NCBI GenBank assembly: GCA_032718475.1
Contig: JAUCBJ010001588.1
Coordinates: forward strand, 51,981-115,980
Length of the DNA stretch: 64,000 nucleotides
Direction of reading: 5' to 3'
DNA from: Nemertoderma westbladi
Lineage: Eukaryota > Animalia > Xenacoelomorpha
Made by a program: the position numbers and the translations under genes. Numbering within the stretch: position 1 is the first letter of the stretch; each line of letters starts with the position of its first letter. Below are positions 9,738 to 59,469 of the stretch, in pieces. The notes below the pieces were generated by a model. That model was not told the origin of the DNA, searched no databases, and saw nothing but the letters and a program-made list of their open reading frames with translations.

Positions 9738-35530
<25,793 letters not shown>

Positions 35531-35821
35531 TCGACACACCAATTAATTGACTGTTTTATATACTGTAGGTAGATCAGTGAGTGAGCTGGTGGAATTAATT
35601 TGAATTCGTATTACAGTAGGTGCGACATTTTTTACTTTCTTGTCCGTATTTTTCGTATCTGCGATGGTGCTATGTTAATTATATTTAACTACTTGTAATC
35701 GACTTCCTTATATTTAAGTTTTTTATTAAATATTTTCATTGATAAATTCCCTCATGATAGAACAACTCGTTGTTTTCATAAATAAATATTGCTACACAAT
35801 AAATTCCTAGTCTACAGTAGG

Positions 35822-36992
35822 TGTTCGCGCTTTCAGACCTTTAGCAGTTTAACCTGCCAAATTAGGATGTCTTCTAGATAATAGATCGTCTTTAGCCTAC
35901 GACAAATATTTGATACACTACATTAGCCGAAACCAGTCTATGCGCGATCATTCACCCGCTGGATATACCCGGGAGACTGGATTCGGAAGCCTAACCGTAT
36001 TGCGGGGTAGGCCTACTGTATTATTCGACTGATCGTAATATATATAATCTCTGACAAATATTATTCACTTTCGGGAAATATTAACAGTTCCTTTAGGACG
36101 TGGCGCTCTAAATATGTAAACAGAGTTATGACTTATACTAGACACAACAGGATGGCTATAGATTCACGTATATGGCGCATTCTTTAGGAGATGCTTCATT
36201 ATCAATCACGATCACACACAACGCTGCACAATGCTGCACACCAATCTGCCGACCTTCACCAATTTTAGTCACATATAAAGAGAATAACAGACAATACATG
36301 TAGGGCCTATAAAATAGCATTAGATTCACTTCAAACCACTGAATGTAAGTCGCAATCGTTATATGTAACCGGTCTCTCTAACCTTTAGTATATCAAGAAG
36401 ATTGGGGTGTCTGATTATTGATCAGTATTCCAAATATAATATTCCATCAACAAATATAATGAATAACCGACAGTAAATAGCAGTACAAAGTTTAAGGTGT
36501 GAATGGTTATGAGTGATGACCGAATAAGTTGGTTTGTTAAGTAAGATAACGGATATACGTTCTATAATTAAGCCTACTAATGTTGATGCTAAAGACTGAA
36601 ACACGGAGGTTCCACGCCGGTGTTGTAGGCTGTGGACAAAATCACATACTGACTCAACTCCACGAGTTTCTATCTACCATCTCCAACACAGAGTCCAAAA
36701 AACGCTCTGATTGGTCGACCGAACAAAGAGAGAACAAAGAACAAAGAGATGTTCTACGTGGCAATATCAGCTGTTAGCCGTCGTCATGGTAGCTACACTG
36801 TTTCAAGAGGATCCGGCGTATTGTGTCATAAAATTGCGGATTATGTCCGCTAAAGTACACATACAGAAGAAATTACTTTTATGTCCTCTAAAACACCAGT
36901 ACAGTAAGGACACGGCATTTTTATGCCTGGTAAACCAACTACAGAGTACTTTACGGGGAAAATAACCAGCTAATTACGCAAAAGCCTTTACA
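35822..36992 (-). repeat. 3' LTR of element A
   Basis: Direct repeat of 48402-49572; minus-strand TGTAAAGG...GCGAACA. Confidence 0.95.
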
Positions 36993-37001
36993 CCGCTCCC
37001 A
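36993..37001 (-). promoter_or_regulatory. polypurine tract
   Basis: Minus strand TGGGAGCGG directly abuts the TG of the 3' LTR; identical in element B at 61754-61762. Confidence 0.7.
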
Positions 37002-37095
37002 GAAAATGGGATTTAAGTCTATAAAATATAACAAATCACAGTTTCTAAAATATAAAAATACTCTAAACAGTTAGTCTTTCTTACGCGGACGGCGT

Positions 37096-38214
37096 TTACG
37101 CAGTTTTTTTGAGGCTAGCAAGAGTCCTTTTCTCTTTGGGGCGAGCCACTTTACTAGGAGGGCTGTAACTCCTGGGTGAAGGGTGCAATACAATTGCATC
37201 AGATGGTTTAGGATTACGATCGGTGTATCCGCCGGTTGAGGTACCTGGTTGATCGATATCAACCTCAGTGGAGCGAGGTCTAACGGCCTTTAGGGCGCGT
37301 CTTAGGACAGCAGCTCCTACGGGTCCTTGACGGGTCGTCTGGACAATGGCGGTAGGCGGACCGTGAGTGGTGAGAAACTTCCTTGGTTTAATGGTTCTTT
37401 CCAGCTCGCGTTCTCGGGCTCGATATTCGTAGGGCCGTCGAGATACTTCCTGTAACTCAGGGTGCGAGTTGATAAATAAATCGCCATACTCAGGGTCTTG
37501 ACGGATGTAATTGATCAAATGGTATGAAGTAATATCGTTAGGATTGACATTCCTAAGGTATTTTCGAACGAATTTGGTGGAAATACACTCACCAACACGC
37601 TTCATTAGTTCGTAACTCGGTGTGCGTGTTTTTTGTTCCACAGACGCGAATAAATAAGGATGGAACGCGTAAACTCCCTCGTAAGAGCGTCCAGGGTAGT
37701 AGCGATGGCGGGACTCACAATGTAAATCCGCGTTCGCTTCCCAAGCTCGGATGTAGCGCAGGGTAATCATCTCATCTACGCTCTCTAAATCGCGATTAAA
37801 GGGGCAATTATAACTGGCATGTCCTTTAAGTTGACAGTGGTAGCATTGAGTTATAAATTGGGGGCAGACTGCAAAAATATGAGAGTTATTAAGTCTGCAA
37901 TACGCACAATATATCTCCATCATCGGTTGTTCGTGGAAATAGGAGCAGGGTACGTCTGAGTCCATAGGGGTGAAATGGTCTCTCGATGCGCATAATCGAC
38001 AACGTTTTCGAGAAACATAGTTAGCGTGTCGATAATCGTATGCGGTGAGACATTGTAGACCTTGATACCACTCTAAGACGTAGTCGTTATCGCTGCTCCG
38101 GGGCACTGTAGGCCGAATCGCTTCAGCTTCTAAGCATATTGGTTCGTCTTCCAATTGCATAGCTGAGGTAGGTGCAGCTGTCTCCGCAAGCGGACCCACT
38201 GTCTGGACTTCCAC
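37096..38214 (-). CDS. accessory ORF, C-terminal segment: three CCHC zinc-knuckle-like motifs and a basic tail
   Basis: CRLCASRDH..C, CAYCRLNNSHIFAVC, CYHCQLKGHASYNC (canonical CX2CX4HX4C); 372 aa. Confidence 0.7.
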   Translation of the reverse strand: MEVQTVGPLAETAAPTSAMQLEDEPICLEAEAIRPTVPRSSDNDYVLEWYQGLQCLTAYDYRHANYVSRKRCRLCASRDHFTPMDSDVPCSYFHEQPMMEIYCAYCRLNNSHIFAVCPQFITQCYHCQLKGHASYNCPFNRDLESVDEMITLRYIRAWEANADLHCESRHRYYPGRSYEGVYAFHPYLFASVEQKTRTPSYELMKRVGECISTKFVRKYLRNVNPNDITSYHLINYIRQDPEYGDLFINSHPELQEVSRRPYEYRARERELERTIKPRKFLTTHGPPTAIVQTTRQGPVGAAVLRRALKAVRPRSTEVDIDQPGTSTGGYTDRNPKPSDAIVLHPSPRSYSPPSKVARPKEKRTLASLKKTA

Positions 38215-40135
38215 GACAGAATAACCCGTGGGTATTCGGGGTCTTTGTATAACAGATGAATGTAAGTTCTGTATACAAACGTCCTGAAAAAGGGCAAATC
38301 CCGCGCTGTTTAGCTTCTCCGCAGCTGAGTCTCTCAGGCTGAGTTTGGTCAGAGCGCGGTCCTTGAACTGACTTAAGCAGGTCTCTATACTTTAAATATT
38401 GTGTGGTATATGTTTCCACATCTCCATATCGTTGTATTCTTTCTTCCTCGAATAACACGTCAAGATTCCAGTGTACTAAACGAGTTTTGATGAATCCATC
38501 AAGATTATACGGAGGTATCGTTTCTTTCTCTATTCTGGAAACATTATATGGTTTTCGAAATAAGTTTACTTTAACTAACTGATCCAGATGTTTCTGCAGT
38601 TGTTCGAGTTCAACAAGATCGAGAGGATTTATTAGTGGTAGAAACTTCAGACTATGTGTAGGATCTTCCGGTTTTACCATGTAATATTGTGTTAGGTTGA
38701 CGTAATAAGGGTGATCTTTGATCCCATAAAACGAGTCCGGTAAAGGTCTAGCGCGTATGTTAACATCGTGTACCATGCGACGGACAAGATCCGCTCTATT
38801 GTCCGGAGGTTCAACGAGTATACCATCGACACGAGCGGCTTCGATGGGCGGACGCTGTAACATGGGAGCGTCAGCGATAAGATCTCGAGATCTTAGGTTG
38901 ATATCAACCGGTTGGGGTTGTACCGTCGCAAAGAGTTTGTCTCCGAAATGGGGAACCATCGAGGGATGAAGGATGGTTTTAGAGTAGAGATCCGTCATAA
39001 GGATTTGAGCTTCGGGTTGAGCTAAAGCTGCTTCTTCTCTCTCATCCAGTTCTATATGTCTCTCCTCGAGCTGATTTTCCTCCGCTTGTTGTTGTAGACG
39101 CTCATCTAGGAACTCTTGTAAAGAGTAGGTTCGTCCACGTTCGATGTCCTCCTTGAGATTTTGTATTTCTCTATCGAACTGGGGTAAAGCTAATTCCTTC
39201 ACCGCTTGGACTTGTTGCAATTTACGTTTCTCCAAACAATCGTAAGTTCCCTTTCCGATTTTCTGCCGAATAGCGTTTAACGCGTTTCGTACGACGCTCT
39301 CTTCGACTTCCGAAACGGGTTGGATCGAGGTGAAGCCGGGACGGTTGTATGGGTTAAACGGCGATATTAGATGACCGCGTCCCAATCCAGCTAGGTAGGG
39401 TTGGCGAATATCTAGTGATCCTACTACCGGGGTGCCACCGATCAACTGTTCGGGTAACACTAGATCTTTGAACAGTGAGTACAGTTCGGGAGGATCCGTG
39501 ATACTATTAGGATCAAGAGTCTGAGGTCTAACTGAGGAATGAGGAGGTCTGACCGAGTATTCCGGAACTCTGATCATCGGTTTGTTCAAGGATCGTTTGA
39601 GTCGAGCGACCGTAGGGGATACGTCGAACAGGTTTCGCTCGAAACTCCCATAAGTATATCGTGTAAAACTGTGTTTAGCGCAACGTCTCCGCGGATGTTT
39701 ATGTCTTTCCGTTTGCTGATTGGGTCTAGGGCATTCGTCGCAGTAATACCAAAGACGCACGTCCTGCAGGGGAAACGCGGGTGATCGTTCTCCAGTTTTA
39801 CAATATTCCTCCATCTGTTCGAAGCTATCTGGGACGACAGGTAGCGGTCGATCGGCGGTAAGATACATCATAGTGAAATAGAGTCGTTTGAGTTCTATCA
39901 TAGGATCATGATGTATACCTTGAGGATATCGAGTTTCGAGATTTTGTTGGCTGGCAATATTGAGATATGTCTCTCTCAGGAATTCCAGATAATCGTTGAA
40001 GTCACTGCGTTTATCTGGCTCTTCAACGTCTTCCCTTTCGAGTCTGTTTCGAATAGAGTTCTCGTGTTCTATTCTCGGTTTATCGTTCCGACTCCGCTGG
40101 GTATGATAAAACCATTTCCCTTTCGGTATCCACAT
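38123..40135 (-). CDS. accessory ORF, main segment: Cys/His motif and coiled coil, function unknown
   Basis: 670-aa open frame; YYCDECP..HKH..RRCAKH; E/Q-rich heptads; decayed homologue in element B. Confidence 0.75.
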   Translation of the reverse strand: MWIPKGKWFYHTQRSRNDKPRIEHENSIRNRLEREDVEEPDKRSDFNDYLEFLRETYLNIASQQNLETRYPQGIHHDPMIELKRLYFTMMYLTADRPLPVVPDSFEQMEEYCKTGERSPAFPLQDVRLWYYCDECPRPNQQTERHKHPRRRCAKHSFTRYTYGSFERNLFDVSPTVARLKRSLNKPMIRVPEYSVRPPHSSVRPQTLDPNSITDPPELYSLFKDLVLPEQLIGGTPVVGSLDIRQPYLAGLGRGHLISPFNPYNRPGFTSIQPVSEVEESVVRNALNAIRQKIGKGTYDCLEKRKLQQVQAVKELALPQFDREIQNLKEDIERGRTYSLQEFLDERLQQQAEENQLEERHIELDEREEAALAQPEAQILMTDLYSKTILHPSMVPHFGDKLFATVQPQPVDINLRSRDLIADAPMLQRPPIEAARVDGILVEPPDNRADLVRRMVHDVNIRARPLPDSFYGIKDHPYYVNLTQYYMVKPEDPTHSLKFLPLINPLDLVELEQLQKHLDQLVKVNLFRKPYNVSRIEKETIPPYNLDGFIKTRLVHWNLDVLFEEERIQRYGDVETYTTQYLKYRDLLKSVQGPRSDQTQPERLSCGEAKQRGICPFSGRLYTELTFICYTKTPNTHGLFCRGSPDSGSACGDSCTYLSYAIGRRTNMLRS

Positions 40136-40400
40136 CGTCTGTATCGTGTAAATCGATAGGATGGCCGGTAGTTAAGAAGTCCATATACGTACCATTACGA
40201 TGCGTATAGCGAGCGGTGAACTTTCTATAGTCCAATTCATGCGTAAGTTGCTCCGGGGACATTGGCGGTTCGATATAACGACCATCATCCTCAGTAGTAG
40301 TTGGACCAGCGTCGCCGCGTATCAAGCTATCGACAAACGCTTGTAAAGGTAGAGTATATCGCTCCCTGATGCCAAGATCATCTTCTATCAACTCAGTCAT
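40080..40400 (-). CDS. accessory ORF, N-terminal segment (106 aa)
   Basis: ATG-initiated; homologous sequence at 62812-63117. Confidence 0.6.
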   Translation of the reverse strand: MTELIEDDLGIRERYTLPLQAFVDSLIRGDAGPTTTEDDGRYIEPPMSPEQLTHELDYRKFTARYTHRNGTYMDFLTTGHPIDLHDTDDVDTEREMVLSYPAESER

Positions 40401-41218
40401 ATCTGCTATGAGTTTATCAATATTATAATGAGTTTATATATTAGGCTAGCGGGCGTCGCTGCCTACCCCTCTTTTGCCCCTGGACAGTGTAAGATCCTCA
40501 GCGCCGATGTACCGTCGTCGCTGTGCTTTCGCCAACGATGTAGCTACACCACGACAACGATAACCGGCACAAGTCACTCCACTGTCCGTCCCAAAGGCTT
40601 AGATGTACTTCAGGTTCTTTCTGGAGAGTTAGGGCTACTTTCACAATTGCGACTCGCTACTGTAAACACACTTTAGCAGTAACATCCACCTATGAACGCA
40701 CAAATTCAACACAACTGCCATAAACTGTACACATTCAGGCCATTTGTCCGTTAGTCAGTACCTTCCAGAATGTCACTGTATTTATTATGTATCCTTGGAT
40801 ACTAGCAGTGCGCTATTTATTCCGTATGCTATTCAATGGACAAGCCTTTTATTGTTCTTTTAACTCACTTCTAATTGTAGCGTGGTTGTTGCCATGGTGA
40901 CATTATGGAAAGCTAGCGGTAGAATTAGGGTAATTCTCATGCATACAGATCTGGGATGCTATTTAATAGTAATTCTTTAATTGTCAATATCCTCTCCATA
41001 TATGACTTTATGAATTTTATTGGCTATTGACTATATATTGGAGATTCTCGCATACAAATACACTTTATAGAGTGAATCTCCGCTCCCATGATCTATTAAT
41101 TAATGGAATTTTGGGAATGTTATAAATTGTATAAAATGACAATTTATTAAATTCATTGAAATATATGAATTTAAATTTATTCCCTTAAATTTTATTATTT
41201 AATGTTAAATAGACACAA

Positions 41219-41484
41219 TTTTATTCCAGAATGTGTCGGGGGACTGGGATCCTTGATTCTAGGAATTTTGTCTTTTTAAGAGTATCGGTAAGTGCTACGA
41301 TATCTTAATCGACTAGAATTTTAAAGGATCTGATATTTGACAGATTTTATAAATATTAATGGTTAATATTTAAGATGGGCACCAGTTTATTCCAGAACTT
41401 GTCTGGGGACGTTAACCACTGATTCTAGAATTTTGTCTTTCAAGTATATCGGTGGGTGCCGCAATATCTTAATCGACTAGAATT
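41219..41484. repeat. two diverged ~100-bp direct repeats in the pol-accessory ORF spacer
   Basis: tttattccagaa...atatcttaatcgactagaatt at 41219-41320 and 41387-41484. Confidence 0.75.
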
Positions 41485-42037
41485 ACAGATGGTCAAAGGG
41501 TTTAACAGATTTATTTTGCGTTATACGCTACTGTTAAAAGGACATCACGCTACTATATGTATTATTTAATATACGGTATGAGAGCAATATCGCACAAAGC
41601 AATGTCAGTGTGAAGAGGCAAGTCGTTTCCAAGGTCTACCCAGAGCTTGGTTTAGCCGAGACACGAGGATCTGAACTTTGCATTCCTAATACTCTGCCTA
41701 CCAATAATACTTAAATATAGTAGGAGCTTTATTGTACTTTAATAAGTACGGACATTTCATCTTACTGTAGTTACGTATTTGTAAGGTAATACGGACAGTA
41801 AGGAAGGAGAAAAAGAATTATTTCTCGCCGTCGCACTAAATATATAATATGTAAGTAATTAAGTAATAAACGCGAATATATATTGCACTAATCTACTAAA
41901 TTATCGCTAAAATAACATTCTACTAAATAAAATTAAATAAAACGATTATAATAAAATTACATAACAATACATACATAAATATAAAATAATAAGAATAAAT
42001 ATAAAATAATATAGTCACACACCCACTCCGTATGTTG

Positions 42038-44494
42038 TTACGTTATGGAGTCCCTAGATATTTGTTGAATTAGGGAGGTGGTCGTGGGAAGAGTATCTTG
42101 CCTTCCACAGCTTCCGGACAGTTCTCGGTCTCTTTCCAGTAAACATAAACGACCAGCTGGGCGATTGAGTGGTTGCGTTACTTTCTCCGCTCCCTTGGCC
42201 TTTCTAATCTTAGCCGGGTTAAGGTGGGGAGGCCATTCATCTTCTTTACTTAGGAAGTCGGGTTCACCTAACCAGTCTGGAGTATCCGTCAGTTCTTGAG
42301 GAGTTGCTCCTCTGGAGGCGATGTCAGCTAGATTAATCGTCTCGGGGCAATGTCTCCATTGATCTACATTGGAGTTGATGTCGTCATTATCTGAGGAGTA
42401 TGGTCTTCCCTCAGTTGGATCGTCTAACTCACTGCTCTCATCTTCCCATTCTCTTACTTGATATACCTGATCTTTCGGTAATCTTTCCATGAGAGTTCTA
42501 CGGGAAGGGCCAGTAAAGTACCAACCCACTCTAGTTCTTCCCGCATAAGCTTGTAGTGGTTGCGGTTGAGCAGGCCGTTTCTCCAATGTCTCGAGCGCTT
42601 CATGCGCGTTTTGACCGCTGAGTATTTGGACTCCAGGGTAATCGGTGTTGAATCTAGGTATTTCAAGCTGCTGGGTGAAATCGTCCTCATCCCAGTTATA
42701 AGGTTCCACTTGGCTGGTAGCGAAGTTCTTTATCGCTACCAATTTTACTGACCTTATGCTGTGTTCTCCTAGTTCATCCTGGGGGGTGGACAACGCGCCT
42801 ACATAATAATCCGCTATTACGGTAGATTTCCAAACCTGCATAATTCCTGACATGTTTAGCTTAGTTCGGAATTTGGGTTGTCCAGCAAAGATGTCTTCGG
42901 CTAGTTCTTTGTCGATGAATGCTCCTGTGCTACCGGAGTCAAGGAGGGCGTTCACTATATAACTCCTTGTAGGTCCGTGGACCCTTAACTGTACTACAGG
43001 AAATTCTCGGATTCCTACATTGGAAATTGGTGCTTTCCAAGATGGTTGTCTGTCAGAAGTAGTTAGGGTGAGCTCGCTGTCGGTGTCCTTTTCATACGTA
43101 AGTGCTCGATACACTGCGGTATTTGTCAGGTAACAGGATTCGTTTTCATCGGAGAATTCGTCCGTATAGAATCCTTCCATCTCAGATTGATCAGTGTCGT
43201 TCACATCACTGAATTGGACATGTAGTTCGGAATCACTTACCTGACTCGGACTATTTCGCTCGAATTCAGTGTGCAACAAGATATGATGTTTTGCGCCGCA
43301 CTTTGCACACCTTGCGTCGGAGTAACAGGTTCGCCGTTGGTGTCCTCGTCTGAGGCAATAACAACACAACCGCTTATCCCACATGACTTCCCATCTCTCC
43401 GCTAATGATTTCTTCAGGAATTCATCACACATATTCAAACGGTGGGTCCCGTCACATAGCGCACATTTCGGTTTGATATTACTTACCTTATTTTGAATAA
43501 CATTGTGCACACTCGTTCTTTCTTCGGGCTTTCTCACCTGAATTATCTTGGGAGACGTAGGAGGAGTTTTTCTTACCTGTTCTCTCCTGTCATTGGTTCG
43601 AGACTTGAATTTACTTACCTGTTCTTTAGGCGTTTTATTGACATAATAAGATCTTTCAGTGTCTTTCCCGCTATCCTCTCCTTGAGAAGTCTGGCTTTCG
43701 CCGTCGTCTGTATAACACACTGGTGTTACTTTTCTCCTAGAGACGGGTTTCTCACTTACCTTGTTTTCCGGTGTCTTCTCTCTGGACTGCTTTATGAGCT
43801 GTAATTTCACTTCGCCATCCAAGAATGACATGAGATCAGCCATGGTAGGGTCTCGTTGTTGTTGTTCCATCATATATAAAACTTTCTTGTCCCAGCGTGT
43901 ACCTACTCCACCCTTCGGTAAAGTAGAAGCCACTGCTCTAATAACCATAGCACTCTGATACTCATGAGACTTACCTAGCCAATCTAATTGTCTGCAGATC
44001 TCCTGAATCTCATCGGAAAACTCTATAATCCCGCTGCTAATAAACTTTCGGGGCGCTACCAACTTTGCATACAAATACCCAGCTATGTTATTCCTATTAC
44101 CATACCTGAAGTTTAGGGTATCCCAAACTTGCCTTAATCCGTCTGGATGTCCAATAAACTTTAACGCCATTAACTTGGGAGATCCTTCCAAGCACTCGAT
44201 GAGGAATCTAAGTTTCTCTCCATTAGATAGTACAGAGTTCTGTATGTTATCTTTATAATATTCATTAAAAGGTAACCATTTCATCTCATCTCCATTGAAC
44301 TTGACGATCTCTCCCACCTTTACCGCTTGCCGGGCTTCGGTTCTAGCCATTTGACGCGTAAAACTTTCTTGGGCCATCGTGTTATTTAATATCGAGCTAT
44401 CGGTATATAAATTTCTCGGATTATAATCAGGTCTATAGGGAATATCACTATCAACAGGTCTATAATTACCCTTAATAGGGTTTACTATAGGAGT
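42038..44494 (-). CDS. BEL/Pao Gag core + aspartic protease fused to RNase H and integrase C-terminal stubs
   Basis: FNGDEMKW..F..EKLRFL..L.G (DUF1759-like), CALCDGTHRLNMC, CCYCLRRGHQRRTC, CAKCGAKHHILLH, ALLDSGSTGAFI, TRVGW, QWRHCP..NLADIASRG..W..P.FL..EWP, RPAGRLCLLE; frame is open upstream of the ATG at 44377 to ~44494. Confidence 0.93.
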   Translation of the reverse strand, partial: TPIVNPIKGNYRPVDSDIPYRPDYNPRNLYTDSSILNNTMAQESFTRQMARTEARQAVKVGEIVKFNGDEMKWLPFNEYYKDNIQNSVLSNGEKLRFLIECLEGSPKLMALKFIGHPDGLRQVWDTLNFRYGNRNNIAGYLYAKLVAPRKFISSGIIEFSDEIQEICRQLDWLGKSHEYQSAMVIRAVASTLPKGGVGTRWDKKVLYMMEQQQRDPTMADLMSFLDGEVKLQLIKQSREKTPENKVSEKPVSRRKVTPVCYTDDGESQTSQGEDSGKDTERSYYVNKTPKEQVSKFKSRTNDRREQVRKTPPTSPKIIQVRKPEERTSVHNVIQNKVSNIKPKCALCDGTHRLNMCDEFLKKSLAERWEVMWDKRLCCYCLRRGHQRRTCYSDARCAKCGAKHHILLHTEFERNSPSQVSDSELHVQFSDVNDTDQSEMEGFYTDEFSDENESCYLTNTAVYRALTYEKDTDSELTLTTSDRQPSWKAPISNVGIREFPVVQLRVHGPTRSYIVNALLDSGSTGAFIDKELAEDIFAGQPKFRTKLNMSGIMQVWKSTVIADYYVGALSTPQDELGEHSIRSVKLVAIKNFATSQVEPYNWDEDDFTQQLEIPRFNTDYPGVQILSGQNAHEALETLEKRPAQPQPLQAYAGRTRVGWYFTGPSRRTLMERLPKDQVYQVREWEDESSELDDPTEGRPYSSDNDDINSNVDQWRHCPETINLADIASRGATPQELTDTPDWLGEPDFLSKEDEWPPHLNPAKIRKAKGAEKVTQPLNRPAGRLCLLERDRELSGSCGRQDTLPTTTSLIQQISRDSIT

Positions 44495-46410
44495 TTATTT
44501 CTACTTCGCTAGCAGTATAGATGCGTGTAGGCTCCACACCTTGCGCATGAGATACTTCAGACCTAATAGGTTGACATATTGTTACAGAGGGTGGTGATAT
44601 ACCCTTTTGTAAATGTACTAATTTACTTTGCTGCACTTCTTGCAACTCTAACCTACTTTCCTTTATGGTTCCCTCCATCTTTCCGAGGAGAATATCCATC
44701 CCCCGCCGTCTCTCGTCTACCCAATCAACCGCCGAAGCGGGATCCGCCAACGTTGTAGCGGGCAGACGAGGGACTACGGGCGATATATCCTTTATATTTC
44801 GCTCGGAGTCCAGGACCGACACTGTTTCAGGGGCTGTTCCTCTAGGCACAGATAATTTGGTGCTGTGTAAAGGGAATTTAAAGGTAGGTTCTGGGAGTAC
44901 AGGTGTCTCTATCACCGAAGGGGTGATTTCAAGAACAGGCCTAATTATTTCAGGCTCATCTACTATAGTAGGGAGTCTTTCTATTTTAATTATTTGGTCT
45001 GTGGGTTCTGTACTACCTAAGCCTGCGCTAGTTAGTTGTCTTTTAACAGCTGGGGGCAAATCAGGCAATTTCTGATGGTGAGATGTTCTTCTACATCTGC
45101 TTAGACGAGATCTATTTCCCCCGCCTTCAGCATCGGTGGTATCGCCTTCCTCAGATGATGTATATCCCTGTCTTTTGGGAGTAGATCGATTCATCATCTG
45201 CATATTACTAGCTGTTAATTGTTTATTGATGTTGTCTTGCCTCTCTTGAAGATTTTCCAATTCTAGTTGGGTGGTCTCTTCAGCCGCTCTCCGTTCTGCT
45301 TCTGCCACTGCCACTGCCGCTTTTCTTTCCATGTCGGCTGCTTTTCTTTCCGCTTCTGCCGCTGCCACTGCCGCTTTCTTTCTGTCTTCTATCTGTTTTT
45401 TCTTTACTTGTTCTTCTTGGACTCTAGCAATGCGGAGTTGTTCATCAAATTTAGCTTGGTTCGCAGCTATCCTATCCACATCGATTGCGTCCAACACAAG
45501 CTTGGCTCCCTCACTATTAGGGCTAAGTCCACATCCACTGCGATTTCCACGGGGCAGCTCTTTGAACTTGGAGACTCACCCGCTGTAACCAAGTCTTTAC
45601 GGCAACTTGCAACGACGTGTCTTGCTTTCTTTTCGAAGCCTCCTCAAAGGCAGATAAGATTAGTCTGATTCTTAGAATTCTTTCTCTAACTTGATAAAGC
45701 AGCTCTCCCTGCTCTTGAGGTCCTTGTGGTTGTCTAAACAGTTGCTCCTCTAATCGCTCCATAGAGCTGAAGAATCCCTGTACGTATCCGGCTGCTGACC
45801 TCTTCCATACAGCTGGATCGATGGTTTCCTTTGTTACTCCCATCCTGTGTATGTCTTCCCAAGCAGCTTCTGATAAGTCAAACGGTAGTCCGGGTCCGGG
45901 GAAGCTCCATTGCGACTCGACAATAGACTTCAGTTCTTCCCGTATATATCCCGCATAACTATCCTTGGTCGATCGCTTACTTCTCGCCCAATCAATCTGG
46001 TGTTCCTCCACCGCAATCAATACCCTGGTGAGTACGGCTGCAGGAAGGATGAGAAGGGGATCCGAATAAACCGTATCCGCTATCTTCGCGTTCGGGCATT
46101 AGCTCAACAGTCTCAACAGACTACTGGAGCTCTCGGGCCGCTGAGAACTAGGTTCTTGGCTAGGAGGTTGCTGCTGTTTGACAGCTGCTTCTTGATCCCG
46201 CTTAACTTGGGCCCGAGTACCGATGATAGACCTACGGTGTTGGATTAGCCTAGGGTCTGATATTACTACAGGAGGGATGACCTTCCTCACAGTAGGAGGT
46301 GAACTGAACTTAGGTCTAGATGGTTCTACACCCCTATCTGAGTCGCAGATAGTTACATCTAATAAACTGTCTGACAGGTTCTGCTTAGTATCAGACATGT
46401 TTGTTTGCAC
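44472..46410 (-). pseudogene. frameshifted N-terminal Gag extension (coiled-coil and Pro-rich), in three ORF pieces
   Basis: ORFs 46099-46410, 45523-46020 and 44472-45497 lie end to end on the gag strand. Confidence 0.65.
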
Positions 46411-46537
46411 AGTTGAATGCTTACTGCTATATTACAGTCTAAGCAAGTCTAGTAATTCAGTATTAACTGTTAGCCTAGTAACTAATTACCCATACTGCTA
46501 CTCAGTGCAGCGTGATATATATATAATATAATATATT

Positions 46538-46790
46538 AGAATACCGGTATGCTTATAGTATATATAAATTTTATAACAGACTAGGTTTGTCACAGAATAC
46601 CGGTATATAATTTTAGCACAAATATATATAAATATATAATAGGCCTATCGTGAATACCGGTATACAGCTTACACCTATAGTATATATATAAGTATAATTA
46701 TTAACTAGAATTAATTACAGAATACCGGTATAATTACAGCCTAAATTTATAAATATATAATAGGCCTATCGTAAATACCGGTATATCAAT
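46538..46790. repeat. five degenerate ~60-bp repeats with core AATACCGGTAT in the element A leader
   Basis: Cores near 46540, 46596, 46653, 46721, 46774. Confidence 0.7.
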
Positions 46791-47486
46791 TATTTTAAAT
46801 AATTGAATTTCTGAATTTTAGGGGTTACTTGGTTACTTTGCTTACTTTATTACCGTTATTTGAGCAGTAGTCCAACTGATATTGAGACCTAATTGTTGTA
46901 TGGTATGTTGTATTTTTAGGGTAATTTTACAAGAAGCCTACAAACCAGCCTAACAAAGGGTTAGAATTCTGGTTATTACAAACGGACAGGATACTACGGT
47001 ATTTGAAAATAATAAGCAGTAGTAAATATATTGCGCTGTCCAGATAGGAAAAATACCACCGTCTGACGACCTATAACCGTATCGCTATAGGTACTACGTT
47101 ATGTATCACGGAGTGTTCCTACCTGGAAGTTAATTACCGCGGTCTACCAGAACCAACGTGCCTATTAACCACTTTACAACACAAATATACTGCCTACACA
47201 CTAATCACCTTCGGAAAGTACTGTACACTAAACCCTAAATTAGGTACAAGTACTTGTACAACAAATAATCAGTCGTTAAAAATACTTGAACAGCTAAAAG
47301 AACCACGGTATCTGCCGGAGTGACCAAAGCATAAAATCTCCAGTCTTTACCTACGCCAAGCAGCCCTGATGTAGTACCGGGGTTAGTTTAACTATAACGG
47401 TATGTATAACAAGCACAATTACTGTAGGAATAAACTTGGGGATATGAATGTTGCGAATAATCGCATAAACTCTGAATAATAAATAT

Positions 47487-48055
47487 TACGCTACGCGTAC
47501 AGACTACTCAAACAAAATGCAGACCAAATACTGACAGACTACTATCAAGCCCAAACAAACTACGGTATATGCAGACTCCGAAATGGTTAGTTAGTATGCG
47601 TTCTAACCGAGTAGTACGACTTATTCTTTCAGAGGGGGTTTACCTCACAGCACTGGAAGCCCCTACGTTCCCAACTGGCACTTTATCGGACATACACTCT
47701 ACACACACCGAAATTTCCTCAGACCTAACAACAGCCAGACAACTATCCAGCCTACAAATTATCTAAATAAGAATTATACGCTACCTGTACAGACTACACA
47801 AACAAAGTACAGACCAAACGATGGCAGACTACTATCAAGCCTAAATAAACTACAGTATATGCAGACTCCGAAATGATTAGTTAGTATGCGTTCTAACCTA
47901 GTAGTACGACTTATTCTTTCAAAGGGGGTTTACCTCACAGCACTTGAAGCCCCTACGTTCCTAACTAGCACTTTATCGGACAGATGCTCTACACACACTG
48001 CAATCCGTTCAGACTTAACAACAGTTAGACAACAGTCAAGCCTACAAATTATCTG
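47487..48055. repeat. tandem 290-bp duplication in the element A leader
   Basis: 47487-47765 matches 47777-48055. Confidence 0.9.
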
Positions 48056-48401
48056 TACAATCTGAGCAGGCTTACACGCCTTCTGCTCAATATTAACCTA
48101 CTAGTAAATAAAACTGACAGAAATAAGTAAAATCTCAATAAAAAACCAAGGCTGCAGTCCCTGATTAATTATTAAGGCCTACCGGTATATAACTATCAAA
48201 ATCGAATAATACTGCTGTACATGTACTGCTGTAGGTACCGGTCCGGGTGGTTAGGTAGTCAGGCCTACTGGGTACCGGTTGGCCGGTACTTCAGCTTTAT
48301 TGCCTACTGCAATACAGAAGCAATATCCGTTATTGTTCTTACCAGAACAATATTAAACTGTATTTATTGCCTACCCTGCAATTAGACGAAATATCCGTTA
48401 T

Positions 48402-49572
48402 TGTTCGCGCTTTCAGACCTTTAGCAGTTTAACCTGCCAAATTAGGATGTCTTCTAGATAATAGATCGTCTTTAGCCTACGACAAATATTTGATACACTA
48501 CATTAGCCGAAACCAGTCTATGCGCGATCATTCACCCGCTGGATATACCCGGGAGACTGGATTCGGAAGCCTAACCGTATTGCGGGGTAGGCCTACTGTA
48601 TTATTCGACTGATCGTAATATATATAATCTCTGACAAATATTATTCACTTTCGGGAAATATTAACAGTTCCTTTAGGACGTGGCGCTCTAAATATGTAAA
48701 CAGAGTTATGACTTATACTAGACACAACAGGATGGCTATAGATTCACGTATATGGCGCATTCTTTAGGAGATGCTTCGTTATCAATCACGATCACACACA
48801 ACGCTGCACAATGCTGCACACCAATCTGCCGACCTTCACCAATTTTAGTCACATATAAAGAGAATAACAGACAATACATGTAGGGCCTATAAAATAGCAT
48901 TAGATTCACTTCAAACCACTGAATGTAAGTCGCAATCGTTATATGTAACCGGTCTCTCTAACCTTTAGTATATCAAGAAGATTGGGGTGTCTGATTATTG
49001 ATCAGTATTCCAAATATAATATTCCATCAACAAATATAATGAATAACCGACAGTAAATAGCAGTACAAAGTTTAAAGTGTGAATGGTTATGAGTGATGAC
49101 CGAATAAGTTGGTTTGTTAAGTAAGATAACGGATATACGTTCTATAATTAAGCCTACTAATGTTGATGCACGGAGAAACACGGAGGTTCCACGCCGGTGT
49201 TGTAGGCTGCGGACAAAATCACATACTGACTCAACTCCACGAGTTTCTATCTACCATCTCCAACACAGAGTCCAAAAAACGCTCTGATTGGTCGACCGAA
49301 CAAAGAGAGAACAAAGAACAAAGAGATGTTCTACTTGGCAATATCAGCTGTTAGCCGTCGTCATGGTAGCTACACTGTTTCAAGAGGATCCGGCGTATTG
49401 CGTCATAAAATTGCGGATTATGTCCGCTAAATTACACATACAGAAGAAATTACTTTTATGTCCTCTAAAACACCAGTACAGTAAGGACACGGCCTTTTTA
49501 TGCCTGGTAAACCAACTACAGAGTACTTTACGGGGAAAATAACCGGCTAATTACGCAAAAGCCTTTACTACA
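48402..49572 (-). repeat. 5' LTR of element A
   Basis: About 10 differences from the 3' LTR by eye. Confidence 0.95.
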
Positions 49573-50157
49573 GTAGGACCTCCACATGTTTGTAGGCACC
49601 TAATCGCCCTATCCTACCAGGCCATATCATCCAGTGATGGTTCATCTGTTACCAACCTTGCCAAGAACCGAAAGTTACACCCTTGGGAAAGTACTACAGT
49701 GACGTGTCTCCAAGTTTATAGTACAACCAATGGCGGTCGAGACCTTGGGCGGTCATGTACAAGCACCGTGGACTTTCTCCCCGAACTAGGCCAGCCTAGT
49801 CGAGAAAGTTAGTGGGAATAAGAGGACCATTAAGCATCTGCGCCAGTAGTGCATTGGGGGCGGGGTCTACGTTCAGGCAGACAATGCTGCATGTATTAAG
49901 GAATCCTTTGGCTCAGGAGATCTAACACTTTTATATTTTACACTTTAGGCACTTAAGTATACAGTACATTAGGCCCCCTAGACCCTACATATAAATTTAA
50001 GTGAACAAGTTGCCCGAACATCACAGAGACACAAGTACAGCCCGTAGCTAACTAAACCAAAAGGCGTAACCGAGATTTATAGTACAGTCGGCCCCTAATA
50101 CATACAGTATGCCACAGCTGTCTCGCTTCCATCATAATTCGTTACCATACATACTTA

Positions 50158-50757: not shown

Positions 50758-51945
50758 TCATGGGCTGGGTCGGTAATCGGTTTCAGTTCGCCATGGGCTG
50801 GGTCAGTAATCGGTTTCAGTTCGCCATGGGCTGGGTCGGTAATTGGTTTCAGTTCGCCATTGGCTGGGTCCATAATTGGTTTCAGTTCGCCATGGGCTGG
50901 GTCAGTAATCGGTTTCAGTTCGCCATCCGCATGGGCTGGGTCCGTAATCGGTTTCAGTTCGCCATGGGCTGGGTCCGTAATTGGTTTCAGTTCGCCATGG
51001 GCTGGGTGAGTGTAATTGGTTTCAGTTCGGCTGGGTCAGTAATCGACTTCAGTTCGCCATGGGCTGGGTCAGTAATCGGTTTCAGTTCGCCATGGGCTGG
51101 GTGAGTGTAATTGGTTTCAGTTCGGCTGGGTCAGTAATCGACTTCAGTTCGCCATGGGCTGGGTCAGTAATCGGTTTCAGTTCGCCATGGGCTGGGTCCG
51201 TAATTGGTTTCAGTTCGCCATGGGCTGGGTGAGTGTAATTGGTTTCAGTTCGCCATGGGCTGGGTCCGTAATCGGTTTCAGTTCGCCATGGGCTGGGTCA
51301 GTAATCGGTTTCAGTTCGCCATGGGCTGGGTGAGTGTAATTGGTTTCAGTTCGGCTGGGTCAGTAATCGACTTCAGTTCGCCATGGGCTGGGTCAGTAAT
51401 CGGTTTCAGTTCGCCATGGGCTGGGTCCGTAATTGGTTTCAGTTCGCCATGGGCTGGGTGAGTGTAATTGGTTTCAGTTCGCCATGCGCTGGGTCCGTAA
51501 TCGGTTTCAGTTCGCCATGGGCTGGGTCAGTAATCGGTTTCAGTTCGCCATGGGCTGGGTGAGTGTAATTGGTTTCAGTTCGGCTGGGTCAGTAATCGAC
51601 TTCAGTTCGTCATGGGCTGGGTCAGTAATCGGTTTCAGTTCGCCATGGGCTGGGTCCGTAATTGGTTTCAGTTCGCCATGGGCTGGGTGAGTGTAATTGG
51701 TTTCAGTTCGCCATGGGCTGGGTCAGTAATCGGTTTCAGTTCGCCATGGGCTGGGTCCGTAATTGGTTTCAGTTCGCCATTGGCTGGGTCAGTAATCGGT
51801 TTCAGTTCGCCATGGGCTGGGTCCGTAATCGGTTTCAGTTCGCCATGGGCTGGGTCAGTAATTGGTTTCAGTTCGCCATGGGCTGGGTCAGTAATTGGTT
51901 TCAGTTCGCCAAGGGCTGGGTCCGTAATCGGTTTCAGTTCGCCAT
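50758..51945. repeat. 33-bp minisatellite (~36 units, CCATGGGCTGGGTCAGTAATCGGTTTCAGTTCG) with a 229-bp higher-order unit
   Basis: Identical variant blocks recur at 51204, 51433 and 51662. Confidence 0.98.
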
Positions 51946-52149
51946 GTTGATCTCGGCGCATCCCATTGCATCTGTTGGTAGCGGGTAAAGAGGCTGAGCC
52001 GCCCTGGAGCCAGACAATAATGGCCAGACAGAATATGTACTTATATTATTACAATTTCAGTATATTGCAATATTATGTATGTACTGTACAGTAGGAATAA
52101 TCCATCTAACTTTTATGTTTTTTTACTTATAGTAATTTCATGGTTTAAT

Positions 52150-53904: not shown

Positions 53905-55242
53905 TCAATTCAATTGCCCAACATTATTTATATGTTTTTTCTCCATATGGGCGTTTAAGTAATACCTTTTGGTAAATAACTTATTGCAATGAACACAGAT
54001 GTATTTGATGCCCTGATGTACGAGTTCCCGATGTCTCTTGAGTCCCTGTCTGTCGGAGTAAACGCTGTCGCAGAGCGCGCACCCGTACTTTCGGCCTTTA
54101 TGGATGGCCTCGATGTGCAGCTTGAGACTCCAACTGGTCACGAAGGTTTTATCGCACTCGGTGCAACTGTGTTTCATATGATTATGAACGGCGTCGACGT
54201 GCCGCTTTAAACCCCGGATATCCGCGTACATTTTTTCGCAGGAATCGCAGCCATGTTTCGCTGACTTAGCGTGCGAGAACTTTAAATGTTTCTGAAGGCC
54301 GGAGGAATCGGTATAAACTTTATCGCATTCCGTGCAATTATACTTAATACCCCGGTGAATCGCTTCGATGTGTTTAGTTACACCCAAATTATCGGAATAG
54401 AGTTTATCGCAATAAAGACAACTGTACTTCTTCCCTAAATGAACGGATTCTCGATGCCTCCGCAGGTATCTTTTATCTTTAAATACTTTATCGCATTGGT
54501 GGCAGTTATAAGTAATACCTCGATGAACTGAGTCAATGTGTTTCTTTAGAATATCCCTTTTCGCGCACAACTTATTGCAGAGACTGCAGGTGTAATTAAT
54601 ACCTCTATGTATGAAATCAATATGGGTCTTTAGGTGACCTTTGGTTGCGTGTTGACTAGGGCAATGCGGACAATCATATTTAATTCCTTTATGGACGGAG
54701 TCGATATGTTTATCGAGGTTGTCTTTATTTGAACATTTTTTCTCGCAAAGGAAACACACATGTTTGTGACATTTGTGAGCGAATTCTATGTGTCTCTGCA
54801 ATCCGGTTTCCGATTCGTATTCTTTTCCGCACTCGAAACAAACGAACCCGAATTCCGATTTTACAGATTCTTCGAGATGTTCAGATTTTACTTCGGGAAC
54901 ATCAAAATTAAAACCGGAAGAAATGTCCCCGCAGTTTAAATTATCATATTGGAAGTGAGTAGGATCGTTATTATATTCTCCTTGTGTCTCATAAGGATGA
55001 AGTGGTTCATTTTGAGTTTCCATACCGGTACCCGTACCCGTACCAGTAGGTTCTCCATTATGTAGTACAATTACAAACTTATCTCCCGCCAGAATTTGAT
55101 TGTCGTCTGCGATACCATGCCGGTAATCGTTCTCAACCTTTACTTCTATATTTCTCACTGTTTTTTCTTTATCAGGGGAGATATTTATCGCAGCGTTGTC
55201 AGAGTGAGTCATTATACCGGTACCGGTATTGTTCGTCGACAT
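53905..55242 (-). CDS. C2H2 zinc-finger protein (11 HX4H-type fingers, H.GIKY linkers)
   Basis: Intact 445-aa ATG-initiated ORF with eleven CX2CX12HX4H units. Confidence 0.92.
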   Translation of the reverse strand: MSTNNTGTGIMTHSDNAAINISPDKEKTVRNIEVKVENDYRHGIADDNQILAGDKFVIVLHNGEPTGTGTGTGMETQNEPLHPYETQGEYNNDPTHFQYDNLNCGDISSGFNFDVPEVKSEHLEESVKSEFGFVCFECGKEYESETGLQRHIEFAHKCHKHVCFLCEKKCSNKDNLDKHIDSVHKGIKYDCPHCPSQHATKGHLKTHIDFIHRGINYTCSLCNKLCAKRDILKKHIDSVHRGITYNCHQCDKVFKDKRYLRRHRESVHLGKKYSCLYCDKLYSDNLGVTKHIEAIHRGIKYNCTECDKVYTDSSGLQKHLKFSHAKSAKHGCDSCEKMYADIRGLKRHVDAVHNHMKHSCTECDKTFVTSWSLKLHIEAIHKGRKYGCALCDSVYSDRQGLKRHRELVHQGIKYICVHCNKLFTKRYYLNAHMEKKHINNVGQLN

Positions 55243-56167
55243 ACTGACATATTATAGATAATTACAGAATTAGTTTAAGAAGTATTGACTAGTATGTAGT
55301 GAGTGAGTACTGCAGTATGTGTCAGATTCATTACCTTACTGCATTATATTTAATTTCTTACAGCCATGTTCTGTTAGTATGTGTTCTGATGTTGCTTCTA
55401 CCGTCTGACCTTAGTAATTGCAATGTTTTGCAATGTAATTCAGTAATTGCGACGTTTTAATCTATTTTACACAAAAAATTAAAATCAAATTTTGCTTTAA
55501 AATTAATATAGGCCAAGCACCTAGCCTACAGGCCTACAGTACAGCAGTACCCTACTCAGCTACTACTGACGCAATATGTTTAGAATATAATATTTTAGTT
55601 TTTATTACTTTTTCTTTGTACTTACAGATTTCTGGATTTATGTTGGTTTTACTCATTGCTCACCCTACAGTGTAGGCCTATACGTTACTATCGCCGTTCA
55701 GCCGTTTTTAATCTAGGCAGCTAGGTGTACTGTCTGACTGTACAGTGTACACATAAACATTTATATCCATTTTAGATTATAAATAATACTGTCAGACTGT
55801 AGCAATACTAGTTTTATTAAGCCTATATAAATTTTGTGAACGTGGTAAACATCTGAACAAATCGTTGTGAATCTATGTTCTGATGTTGGTTTTCATTATT
55901 TCGTACTATGACTGTATGACGACTTCATATAACTTGTATTTTGTTAGTGCAGTAGTGGGTGCCTTATACTGTTATACAAGACATTTATTTCTACACCCGT
56001 ACATTATTGATTTGCTTACCTTGATATCTGACTGTTGCATATTAAAACTGTATTATGGTTTTGAAGGCTACAGCCCTACAGCCTACGGTGCAACTGTGAA
56101 CTGGATGGTTATACATTACTCAGTTACTGCATTATACAACAATACCTACCGTACCGGTACTGCTGCA

Positions 56168-59100
56168 ATGCCACCAAAGAACAAGCAACCACAGACGCAA
56201 GCATGGCTGGGGCGGGGGCGGTACCTGAGGGACAACCACCTCAGCACCAAGACCTAGCCTCGGCGGCAAAATAGATATGTCGAAACTACACAACTGCGAT
56301 ATCTGCAGTGCTCTGTTCGCGAATAAGAGCGACTACGACCTCCACTCATCATCTTGCCACAACGACTCGGTAAATGTCAACTCCATGGACATTTGTCCAC
56401 ACTGTGACAAGAAAGTCGCAGGTAAGAACTGCCTTGGATGCGAAATCTGTGGACATTGGATCTATGGATCGTGCCTGAAACTATCGAATACTGAGGTATC
56501 CACCTTAGCCAAATGCGTAAACTGTAAAATCCTGTGCAATAAGTGTGAGGGAAGAGGTAGATTGGTAGTCCAGTCCTACGATTCCCCGGGAACCCGGCCA
56601 CATCGCTTTCTGACAAAATTGAAATGTTGAGTGACAGTTTAACGCTAAGGCTGTCTACTCTATCAACGGAAATTTTGGAACTCAGAACTGAGCTTGATGG
56701 GGACGAAGATGTACACGTATCCTCGCAATGGAATGTGCAACGCGGAAAAGGAAAGCCCAGGCATTCTTCCGATCCCAGTACACCAATTTCCAGAGCTGTG
56801 GATAAGTCCATAAAAGATGTTTTCCAAAAAGAACAGCTAAAGAAAGAGATCATTATTTCACGACTGAAGGAAGATAACGAGGTGTCTGTAAAGATTCGGT
56901 GCTTCAGCTCTGTGAGTTGGCCGGGGTTGACAAGTCTTCGGTGGTCGAAGTGTCCCGACTGGGACGTCTTGGGAACCATGACCGTCTCGTAAAAGTCTCG
57001 TTCAACAGCGAACAGGGGGGCCTGCGTAATAACAAGAAACAATAAAAGAACAGGGGACGGCTTTCATAAGAATGTGACTGCAAATGTATCATCATCAGAC
57101 TTATGTAAAAAGATCCGCGTTCGCCCGAGTCTATCAGCAGAACAGCGCTCGCGTATCAAAGATAGAAATAAAGAGGTTTATGACCTTAATAAAGCTGCAA
57201 AATCTGAAGATGATCATTCTGAAAGCTACAGCCTAAGGTCCGACGGTTCAGTGTGGAAATTCGTTAAACACTCTGATGGTAAATGGAAACGCGATAAAAC
57301 GTGGACCCATGTACCAGTCTCGGACCCTACCAACAATCCATCAGAGGCCTCACCGCCCTCGGAAAACCAATAGGGGGAGAGAATCGCAAAAAAACACCAA
57401 TCCTAAACTGCTGCTGCTTAAACGCCCGTTCGCTGAAAAATAAACTGTCAGATCTAGGAGTATTTCTCAAGGAGACTAGTTACGACATCATCGCGATTAC
57501 AGAAACATGGATGAACGAGACTATACCCGATGCAATGATCACATCTAGCACAAACTTTAATATGTTTCGCAATGACTGGAAAACTAGGGATGGTGGCGGA
57601 GTCATAATTTTAGTTCGCGATCAATTTCGTTGTGTACGGGTAAACCTACCCAACACCTATAATGATGCCGAACTGGTCGCCATCGATCTACTTGGAAAAG
57701 CGCCGTCCAGATTCGTGTGCGCCTACCGACCCCCATCGCGTTTACTGATTCCAGATAACAGCAGCTTACTATGCGATGCACTGTCTTTACTATCGGATGT
57801 TAACTACCCGTGCGTTATCACTGGCGATTTCAATCTTCCTTTGTTCAACTGGAAGGAAAGTATCTACCCAAATACCGAACTTTATGAACGCGTCGCAGCA
57901 CTGCTGTTAGAATCAAGTTTAACCCAGTTACAACATGAGCCTACCCGTGGCTCGAGTAATCTAGATTTGGTTTTCACTAGCGATGAACTATTTGTCGCAA
58001 ACATGCGCACATTCGAACCGTTTTCCATCAGTGACCACGCTGGAGTTTCGTTCAACATTCTGGCCCCAGCCCACAATCAGAGTCATGACAAACCGGTTGG
58101 CTACTTCGACTTCAATAAGGGTGAAGCCGCCTCTAAAGCGGCCTACCGGGCAACCTGCGAGAAAGAAACCAAAATATTGAATTCTGGTGACAGAAATCAC
58201 ATATTTAAGTACCTAAACTCGAAATGCAAAAATAAATCCGGTGTTGTTCCGTTGAATTACAAGGGCGACACGATTGTAGACGATAAAATTAAAGCCAAAA
58301 TTCTAAGTGAAGTTCTCTCCGAAAACTTCACTGAAGATAATAACTCGGTTCCAATATTTACACGTAAAGTTGGTAACAATGTTAATTTGTCTAGTGTTGG
58401 TTTCAGCCCAGTTAATGTGTTAGTTATGCTAAATAAGCTCGCGTCTAAAAAGAGTAGGACCCCTGATGGATTGCCAGCAATTTTATTTGTTAAACTAGCG
58501 TGTTGTATAGCAGCCCCATTATCAGCAATCTTTCGAGTATCATTCGAAACGCACGCATTACCATCTGTCTGGCTGACGGCCAACATAATACCAACGTTCA
58601 AAAAAGGCGATCCCCGTCAGATCCTTATAACTATCGGCCTATATCCCTTATCTGTATTGCTTGTAAACTCATGGAAATGCGCATTAAAACAGGTTTTAAT
58701 AGATTATTTATTTTCTCATAAATTAATAAGTAGGGCACAACACGGTTTTTTACATCGTAAATCCACCTGTACTCAAATGCTAGAATGTGTTACTGATTGG
58801 TTCAATTTAATTGATAAACGAAAGAACCTGGACATTATATATATAGACTTTGCAAAAGCCTTTGATTCGGTAGTTCACTCTAAATTACTATCAAAGCTCA
58901 CTAGCTACGGTGTATGCGGAGATCTGTTTCTATGGATACGTGCATTTCTATGTAATAGAACCCAAAATGTACTTGTAGGTACCGAATCATCGGACTACTG
59001 TGTAGTTACATCGGGAACTATTCAAGGCAGTGTCTTGGGGCCAGTATTGTTTCTTTTATTTATTAATGATTTACCTGATGCATTGTTACCTGTATGTAAT

Positions 59101-59320
59101 AAACTATTTGCTGATGACCTTAAGCTTTATGCACCGGAGGAAGATTGTGATTCTCTAGCCTCAGCCCTTCAAAACTTGGAAGACTGGACTAGAAAATGGC
59201 AACTAACAGTAGCGGCGCACAAATGCTCGGTTGTTTACGTAGGTGGAAATAATAATAAATTTGTTTATAATTTAAATGGTGCAGTGCTTAAATCAGATAC
59301 ATACTGTAAGGATCTAGGTT
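56168..59320 (+). mobile_element. CR1-clade LINE, decayed: ORF1 (C2H2-like + PHD finger + coiled coil) and ORF2 (APE + RT), 3'-truncated
   Basis: PHD CPHC..CEICGHWIYGSC..C..C; LNARSL, ITETW, YRPP, GDFN, LDLV, SDH; QHGF, IDFAKAFDSV, QGSVLGPVLF, FADD, KDLG; frameshifts and an internal deletion at ~58120. Confidence 0.92.
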
Positions 59321-59469
59321 TAAAACCCTTTCCGGTCTGGGGACTAGATCTAGTCCATGTAGTAGTGAGCGGCAATAAAAGTTATAAAATAAACATCATT
59401 TTCAGAGTATATTTTCGACACTCAGTGTGTCCTATTTACTTTTTGAGCATCCGAAATAGACTCTGATCA

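Follow-up and report, generated by a model that had tools for sequence, protein, structure and literature searches.

The 64-kb window analysed here (64,000 nucleotides; positions 51,981 to 115,980 of contig JAUCBJ010001588.1, assembly GCA_032718475.1, of Nemertoderma westbladi) is repeat-rich, with C2H2 arrays, remnants of long interspersed nuclear elements (LINEs) and satellites. It contains a BEL/Pao-type retrotransposon, element A, on the minus strand (35822–49572, 13.75 kb), and part of a sister element, B (60564–64000, minus strand), which continues past the window end. Between the gag-pol remnant of element A and its 3' long terminal repeat (LTR) are three overlapping sense open reading frames (ORFs), all on the minus strand: the acidic ORF1 (40080–40400; 106 aa from its methionine), ORF2 (38123–40135; 670 aa from its first methionine) and ORF3 (37096–38391; 431 aa from stop to stop, 372 aa from the methionine at 38214). 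These coordinates and lengths agree with a first-pass annotation of the sequence, as does the 1.6-kb non-coding spacer between the gag-pol remnant and ORF1 (40434–42037, minus strand). We read the region, with a probability of about 0.85, as a real non-envelope gene of this BEL/Pao-type family that is broken in copy A; more tentatively, and at somewhat less than even odds, its product may be a soluble zinc-binding and RNA-binding accessory protein that acts in trans on the transcripts of the family.

The open frames are longer than composition would give, with a longest open run of 197 aa when the region was shuffled 300 times and none of the 300 shuffles reaching 431 aa. ORF3 extends to about 100 nt from the 3' LTR, and a TATA-like or branch-point-like motif plus an AG stands directly before the ORF1 ATG; this arrangement is preserved in element B and may have a regulatory role. 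ORF2 includes a CX2C-H-H-C-H cluster of cysteines and histidines (39671–39742, minus strand) and a charged helical stretch with predicted long helices and a coiled coil (39020–39253, minus strand), and ORF3 includes three zinc-knuckle-like motifs within 37804–38001 of the minus strand (37945–38001, 37864–37908 and 37804–37845, with spacings CX2CX4HX9C, CX2CX5HX4C and CX2CX4HX4C, respectively). Judged by the CCHC pattern CX2CX4HX4C with conserved ligands, one of these is canonical and two are variants, and all of these motifs had been recognized at first pass. The spacings are unlike those of element A's own gag knuckles.

An envelope or fusion protein that has diverged strongly would be an obvious occupant of this site, which is that of the envelope-like genes of roo, Tas and the nematode belpaoviruses, but the ORFs do not resemble one. 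Using a simple 19-residue hydropathy window, the peak values are 0.46, 1.07 and 0.92 for ORFs 1 to 3, all under the membrane-helix level, and none of the three has a signal-like segment, so the reported absence of a signal peptide or transmembrane stretch holds. There are just 1–2 glycosylation sequons per ORF, the cysteines are grouped with histidines in zinc-finger spacing, and there is no match to solved glycoproteins or, in Pfam or PDB sequences, to a class I, II or III fusogen or any other known envelope or fusion glycoprotein. An envelope origin is thus largely refuted and extremely improbable, with sequence missing from copy A the only place where a membrane segment could hide.

The evidence that the region is a gene comes from selection. 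Family variation was taken from contigs of four public runs, which cover the whole element and include 2,027 contigs over the 37760–38460 comparison; sites were chosen by support, 40 of 174 in that interval and 40 of 3,118 for the whole element. Third codon positions account for 25 of the 40 sites in 37760–38460, and 24 of the 40 are synonymous in the ORF3 frame, compared with a null mean of 11.9 and with none of 5000 shuffles as high. Three of these variants fall in knuckle Cys or His codons and all three are silent, and no insertion or deletion is present at 5% or more in the interval among the contigs of the four runs. Between elements A and B the ratio of nonsynonymous to synonymous divergence (dN/dS) is 0.27 for ORF1 (0.13–0.55; 99 codons) and 0.29 for the 5' half of ORF2 (0.19–0.42; 270 codons), compared with 0.57–1.12 in the other frames and 0.67–0.88 in the spacer; neither is near 1, a value that would speak against a gene. 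The ORF3 tail, with 45 codons, is uninformative (0.55; 0.21–1.94). Purifying selection acts at the family level, most clearly in ORF1, the ORF2 helical region and the knuckles, and because of it we regard the accessory gene as real at that level; for the 5' part of ORF2 the signal is weak.

Several observations weigh against this interpretation or its RNA-binding extension. The ORF2 signal between A and B is confined to 39052–39420 (20, 22 and 50 differences at first, second and third codon positions), and 39430–40079 has no third-position excess (13/8/7, 9/6/9 and 14/12/12 by segment). Of the six residues of the Cys/His cluster, three are kept in B, one is changed and two are absent, and family variants in ORF2 are silent at only 4 of 6 sites among the 40 of 3,118 for the whole element (in gag, 5 of 11 sites in the same set). 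The variant counts are of sites chosen by support, not of independent events. Two of the three knuckles are non-canonical in spacing, and zinc fingers can bind DNA or protein too. No copy was seen with reverse transcriptase (RT) and integrase beside the accessory gene, and neither a homologue nor a confident fold was found to anchor a function.

In database searches, ORF2 found no homologue among 5.8 billion proteins (targets of 368–1173 aa), ORF3 had no match at E 0.001 among 1.84 billion representative proteins, and the knuckle region gave no homologue at E 10 (targets of 237–755 aa). ORF2 was also not found in metagenome and viral contigs, nor gag in viral contigs, and searches of Pfam, PHROGs and PDB sequences returned nothing significant except DUF1759 on gag; the Pfam zinc knuckle scored weakly on the accessory array, at E 0.0019 and below the cut-off. 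The ESM Atlas had nothing for ORF2, and its look-alikes of the ORF3 knuckle region, which we take as leads only, are all CCHC-array proteins (among them AIR2-like and hexamer-binding protein; scores 0.78–0.88). Single-sequence AlphaFold models of ORF2 and ORF3 have predicted local distance difference test (pLDDT) scores of 37 and 35, and fold searches with them gave no match, a result that does not count with models so poor; within the ORF2 model, confidence is highest for the long helices, with a block pLDDT of 57–72.

The three-ORF layout is partly a product of decay. Where ORF2 and ORF3 overlap, the family variants listed are silent at 6 of 9 sites in the ORF3 frame and at 0 of 9 in the ORF2 frame, and thus ORF2 ends in a tail of 80 or so codons that is off frame, with the ORF3 frame selected throughout 37760–38391. 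Other copies diverge from copy A on both sides of 38358–38379 (minus strand), with nine contigs departing there in run X1, nine in X3 and others in X4 and X5, and no small insertion or deletion is listed at this point; the split between ORF2 and ORF3 is therefore likely a lesion of copy A, with sequence missing. The ORFs exist as annotated, but this overlap probably does not belong to the intact gene. A further frame break in copy A, near 37104, truncates the basic tail, which is present as first noted and which in element B continues to a longer basic end.

The junction of ORF1 and ORF2 differs in that both the stop and the +1 offset recur in element B, and no insertion or deletion is seen there among 12 of 312 family-contig rows. 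Changed codons in this overlap are silent in 4 of 7 cases in the ORF1 frame and in 0 of 7 in the ORF2 frame; the ORF1 frame is favoured, and the first methionine of ORF2 is for this reason doubtful as the true start. ORF1 may be a small gene in its own right; alternatively, the offset may be due to splicing, to programmed frameshifting or to an old lesion that both copies share. Selection acting on ORF2 since A and B separated does not establish programmed frameshifting, as there is no frame preference just past the ORF1 stop.

Element B has a 3' LTR (60564–61753) that is 83% identical to that of A, together with a decayed accessory region and a spacer. What remains of the accessory region is ORF1, with its start and stop preserved, ORF2 over its 5' half, and the final 46 codons of ORF3; ORF2 has eight stops and several frameshifts, and 1,814 nt corresponding to A 37238–39051 are absent, including all three knuckles. 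The homologous region reported for B is thus in the expected place, but its whole knuckle array is gone. Deletions are also present in other copies, and among 15 of 108 joints are 37234>39050, 37421>39054 and 38152>40041, which skip 1,815, 1,632 and 1,888 nt, respectively; the last of them is found in three runs and, in X4, accounts for most of the depth at that place. The suggestion that most of the gene was kept as RT and integrase disappeared therefore applies to copy A only, and even there the gene is broken; at the family level it fails, because B has lost the knuckle array and at least two other deletion forms also lack 1.6–1.9 kb.

The family is very abundant and diverse: over the flank its contigs sum to a depth in the range of thousands-fold, which is not a copy number. 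Summed depth in the middle of the gene is below that of the 5' part by 4.5-, 3.3- and 2.5-fold in X1, X3 and X4, values that are neither copy numbers nor proof, and it is below gag in X1 (6.2) and X3 (4.7) but not in X4 (0.9), which is likewise not proof. Run X5 is presumed to be an RNA run, has another organism label and is not counted as evidence of transcription. The gene appears to be dispensable in cis, as expected for a shared product, with copy A presumably keeping it passively.

Decay and loss could also mean that the ORFs are unused cargo, captured from another mobile element or from the host, with the selection dating to the donor or to an extinct ancestor. Copy A is broken in at least two places, B is decayed, there are several deletion forms, and in part of ORF2 the divergence that separates A from B is neutral. 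Moreover, synonymous divergence in the accessory gene (0.43–0.65) exceeds that of the spacer (0.13), suggesting that the copies are mosaic. The spacer is 87% identical over 872 aligned bases (A 40401–41277 and B 63130–64000) and the 3' untranslated stretch is identical at 77 of 78 positions, so that both are better preserved than synonymous sites, which may reflect either constraint or mosaic copies; the spacer also has a 135-nt internal duplication (41186–41484). Extra ORFs are shared across element classes in rotifers, according to the available part of one study (PMC5408684). One knuckle is matched by a protein, L001, that we take from its pattern to be LINE-ORF1-like.

Captured cargo is nonetheless a distinctly unlikely explanation. 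The region sits at a matching place in A and B, whose LTRs are 83% identical, ORF3 ends close to the LTR, and variation is silent and without frame breaks across the four runs. Internal termini were looked for around the accessory region and none were found, the longest repeat between its flanks being 10 nt. The L001 match was picked through a shared 8-letter pattern and is limited to one knuckle at the motif level, in a different knuckle order, and Pfam gave no knuckle match on L001, which we reject as a relative. We also rejected the reading of the ORFs as gag from a nested LTR element, which would have terminal repeats of its own, a target duplication and a downstream pol: the flanks share no repeat longer than 10 nt, ORF3 runs to about 100 nt from the LTR of element A, and the knuckle spacing is unlike BEL/Pao gag. 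Selection, the envelope position, the absence of a membrane segment and the absence of nested termini support the claim of the first-pass annotation that this is a family-level non-envelope gene; the roles it suggested, as an anti-silencing factor, RNA chaperone or second capsid-like protein, are candidate functions.

If the accessory protein binds RNA, its expression and action might be as follows. A subgenomic message, either spliced or internally started, would yield the protein, which would oligomerize through its long helices and bind single-stranded element RNA with its three knuckles and basic end, and the bound protein would aid export, stability or packaging of the RNA. Because the product would be shared in trans, defective copies could lose the gene, and copy A would simply have retained it. 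Third ORFs are typically expressed from spliced messages, as described in part of PMC5408684, and CCHC arrays have roles in the packaging of RNA and in reverse transcription (PMC2774666).

As for the rest of element A, the insertion is young and the copy that inserted was defective already, with gag broken too. Its 5' LTR (48402–49572, minus strand), with TG...CA ends, and 3' LTR (35822–36992, minus strand) are 1.17 kb each and share 98.9% identity, with a target duplication of 5 bp at 49573–49577, outside the 5' LTR, and at 35817–35821 on the 3' side; all are within the range for Belpaoviridae (0.2–1.2 kb, TG...CA, target duplication). The duplication can also be read as 10 bp. A short purine-rich tract (36993–37000, minus strand) lies ahead of the 3' LTR. 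Belpaoviridae are expected to have an 18-nt transfer RNA (tRNA) primer site for tRNA-Arg or tRNA-Gly, and no tRNA-type site beginning TGG was found at element A. Immediately after the 5' LTR, at the primer-site position (48391–48401, minus strand), 11 nt are exactly complementary to 49126–49136 inside the LTR (36546–36556 in the other LTR), a match equalled in 6 of 5000 shuffled LTRs and present in the predicted fold, where the pairing would span about 735 nt. This satisfies the 10-bp rule for self-priming given in the available text of PMC6317226, and the site is a candidate for Tf1-like self-priming. The LTR of B deviates at the 11-mer, and the B primer site is beyond the window end.

The 5' part of gag is in three pieces with one stop and frame breaks (44472–46431, minus strand) and is assigned by position. 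It is followed by a gag-protease-RNase H remnant (42038–44494, minus strand) with a triple knuckle (43271–43465), a protease motif (42929–42943) and an RNase H C-terminal remnant (42227–42358). The gag matches DUF1759 (E 7e-11, Pfam), and the predicted order of a gag with DUF1759 and a triple knuckle followed by protease is of the Belpaoviridae type. A single distant relative was found, P0001, with Pfam PF05380, and alignment to it is confined to the knuckle region and to the C-terminus of RNase H (E 9e-7). RT and integrase were not found in element A, so that of the Belpaoviridae order RT, RNase H, integrase the C-terminal piece of RNase H alone is left; three contigs of run X5 diverge from it at 42180 (median 132 nt), at the end of the pol remnant, and other copies may continue into integrase beyond this point.

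The self-priming fold raises the possibility that the accessory protein is a second structural component of the particle, nucleocapsid-like, which might for instance chaperone the long-range pairing. Coiled helices, knuckles and a basic end recall gag and LINE ORF1 proteins, and a pairing over such a distance is in keeping with a chaperone. We consider this improbable, since element A's gag already provides a triple knuckle, differently spaced, and neither Pfam nor fold searches, the latter on poor models, gave a capsid-like match.

Elsewhere in the window there are satellite arrays at 1–9705 (36-nt unit), 34333–35533 (50 nt), 50759–51946 (33 nt) and 59474–59805 (21 nt), the 36-mer array being open in several frames for kilobases. 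Two mutually related, single-exon-like ORFs encode C2H2 zinc-finger arrays (21957–23426, plus strand; 53905–55251, minus strand). Endonuclease- and RT-like ORFs at 11541–13019, 25281–26394, 28153–31081 and 56229–59466 are presumably LINE remnants, as judged by their motifs, and one has an upstream PHD-like ORF with a weak PHD match. A low-complexity ORF of 286 aa (14071–14931, plus strand) without a Pfam match is possibly a host exon.

The ICTV profile of the Belpaoviridae lists gag, pol and env-like genes only, in elements of 4.2–10 kb with a tRNA primer site (PMC8742986); element A is longer even without RT and integrase. In the available portions of three reports, extra BEL/Pao ORFs are described as fusogen-like (PMC3118150, PMC13524379, bioRxiv 10.1101/2021.11.23.469668). 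The env-like third ORFs (F-type in roo, gB-like in Tas, phlebovirus-like in nematode elements such as Atlas, chuvirus-like in mosquitoes) are likewise sense ORFs between pol and the 3' LTR (PMC8742986; in part, PMC13524379 and bioRxiv 10.1101/2021.11.23.469668), but the accessory gene has neither a signal or membrane segment nor a viral homologue, and has zinc-finger motifs rather than disulphide patterns.

Closer in kind are the ORF3s of bdelloid rotifer LTR elements (DEDDy exonuclease, GDSL esterase and coiled-coil proteins), which are family-specific non-envelope genes after pol, and the same partial source describes a non-autonomous family that keeps ORF3 while losing pol (PMC5408684). Those products are enzymes or small coiled or membrane proteins with homologues known from other lineages, whereas the accessory gene is about 1,100 aa, an orphan, and has a knuckle array. 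The extra ORFs of plant SIRE and Ogre/Tat/Athila elements are also large, heterogeneous, located after pol and mostly without known domains (PMC6317226, available text), but belong to copia and gypsy lineages, and no sequence similarity to the accessory gene was found. Non-envelope third ORFs occur in the fly MDG1 group (bioRxiv 10.1101/2025.03.14.642691, in part), and according to PMC2774666 the Retroviridae, the Caulimoviridae and some clades of Ty3/gypsy have accessory genes. Among cellular and LINE proteins, CNBP/hexamer-binding protein, AIR1/2 and LINE ORF1p have comparable tandem short-spaced knuckles, but the scores stay under 0.9 and there is no homology at the alignment level. ORF1p also has a helical oligomerization region. 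A non-envelope accessory gene was not found described for BEL/Pao elements in the literature covered, with supplements and Repbase reports outside that coverage. An extra ORF after pol is known in other LTR groups; within the literature covered, a selected orphan non-envelope gene appears to be new for BEL/Pao.

The VANC proteins of VANDAL DNA transposons, family-specific accessory genes acting in trans (PMC6719617, available text), provide a plant precedent for a nuclear regulator that would bind element DNA or chromatin, as an anti-silencing factor or LTR transactivator. The second Cys/His cluster and the basic, localization-signal-like end would suit such a role, and the abundance of the family and the repeated loss of the gene fit an action in trans, which is itself conjectural here. 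VANC proteins are from plant DNA transposons, act through DNA demethylation and have no sequence similarity to the accessory gene, and the available part of the same 2019 review knew of no such factor against the PIWI-interacting RNA pathway. CCHC knuckles mostly bind single strands, Pfam shows no similarity to any chromatin domain, and the Cys/His cluster is only partly kept in B. We think a nuclear regulator unlikely, and lean towards the RNA-binding protein proposed above.

A more elaborate scenario, which we regard as quite doubtful, is a BEL/Pao lineage of the complex type, about 17 kb long, in which the envelope gene was replaced by a Rev- or Tas-like zinc-knuckle regulator that recognizes the family's self-primed RNA and shields it from host silencing, perhaps switched on by the conserved +1 offset after ORF1, with defective copies amplifying to very high numbers as free riders. 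If true, an animal transposon would encode a factor that counters silencing. The natural deletion forms permit copies with and without the gene to be compared. A selected orphan non-envelope gene would widen the BEL/Pao gene set beyond gag, pol and env-like genes, and the accessory gene is a concrete candidate for a role in RNA handling or counter-silencing by an animal retrotransposon.

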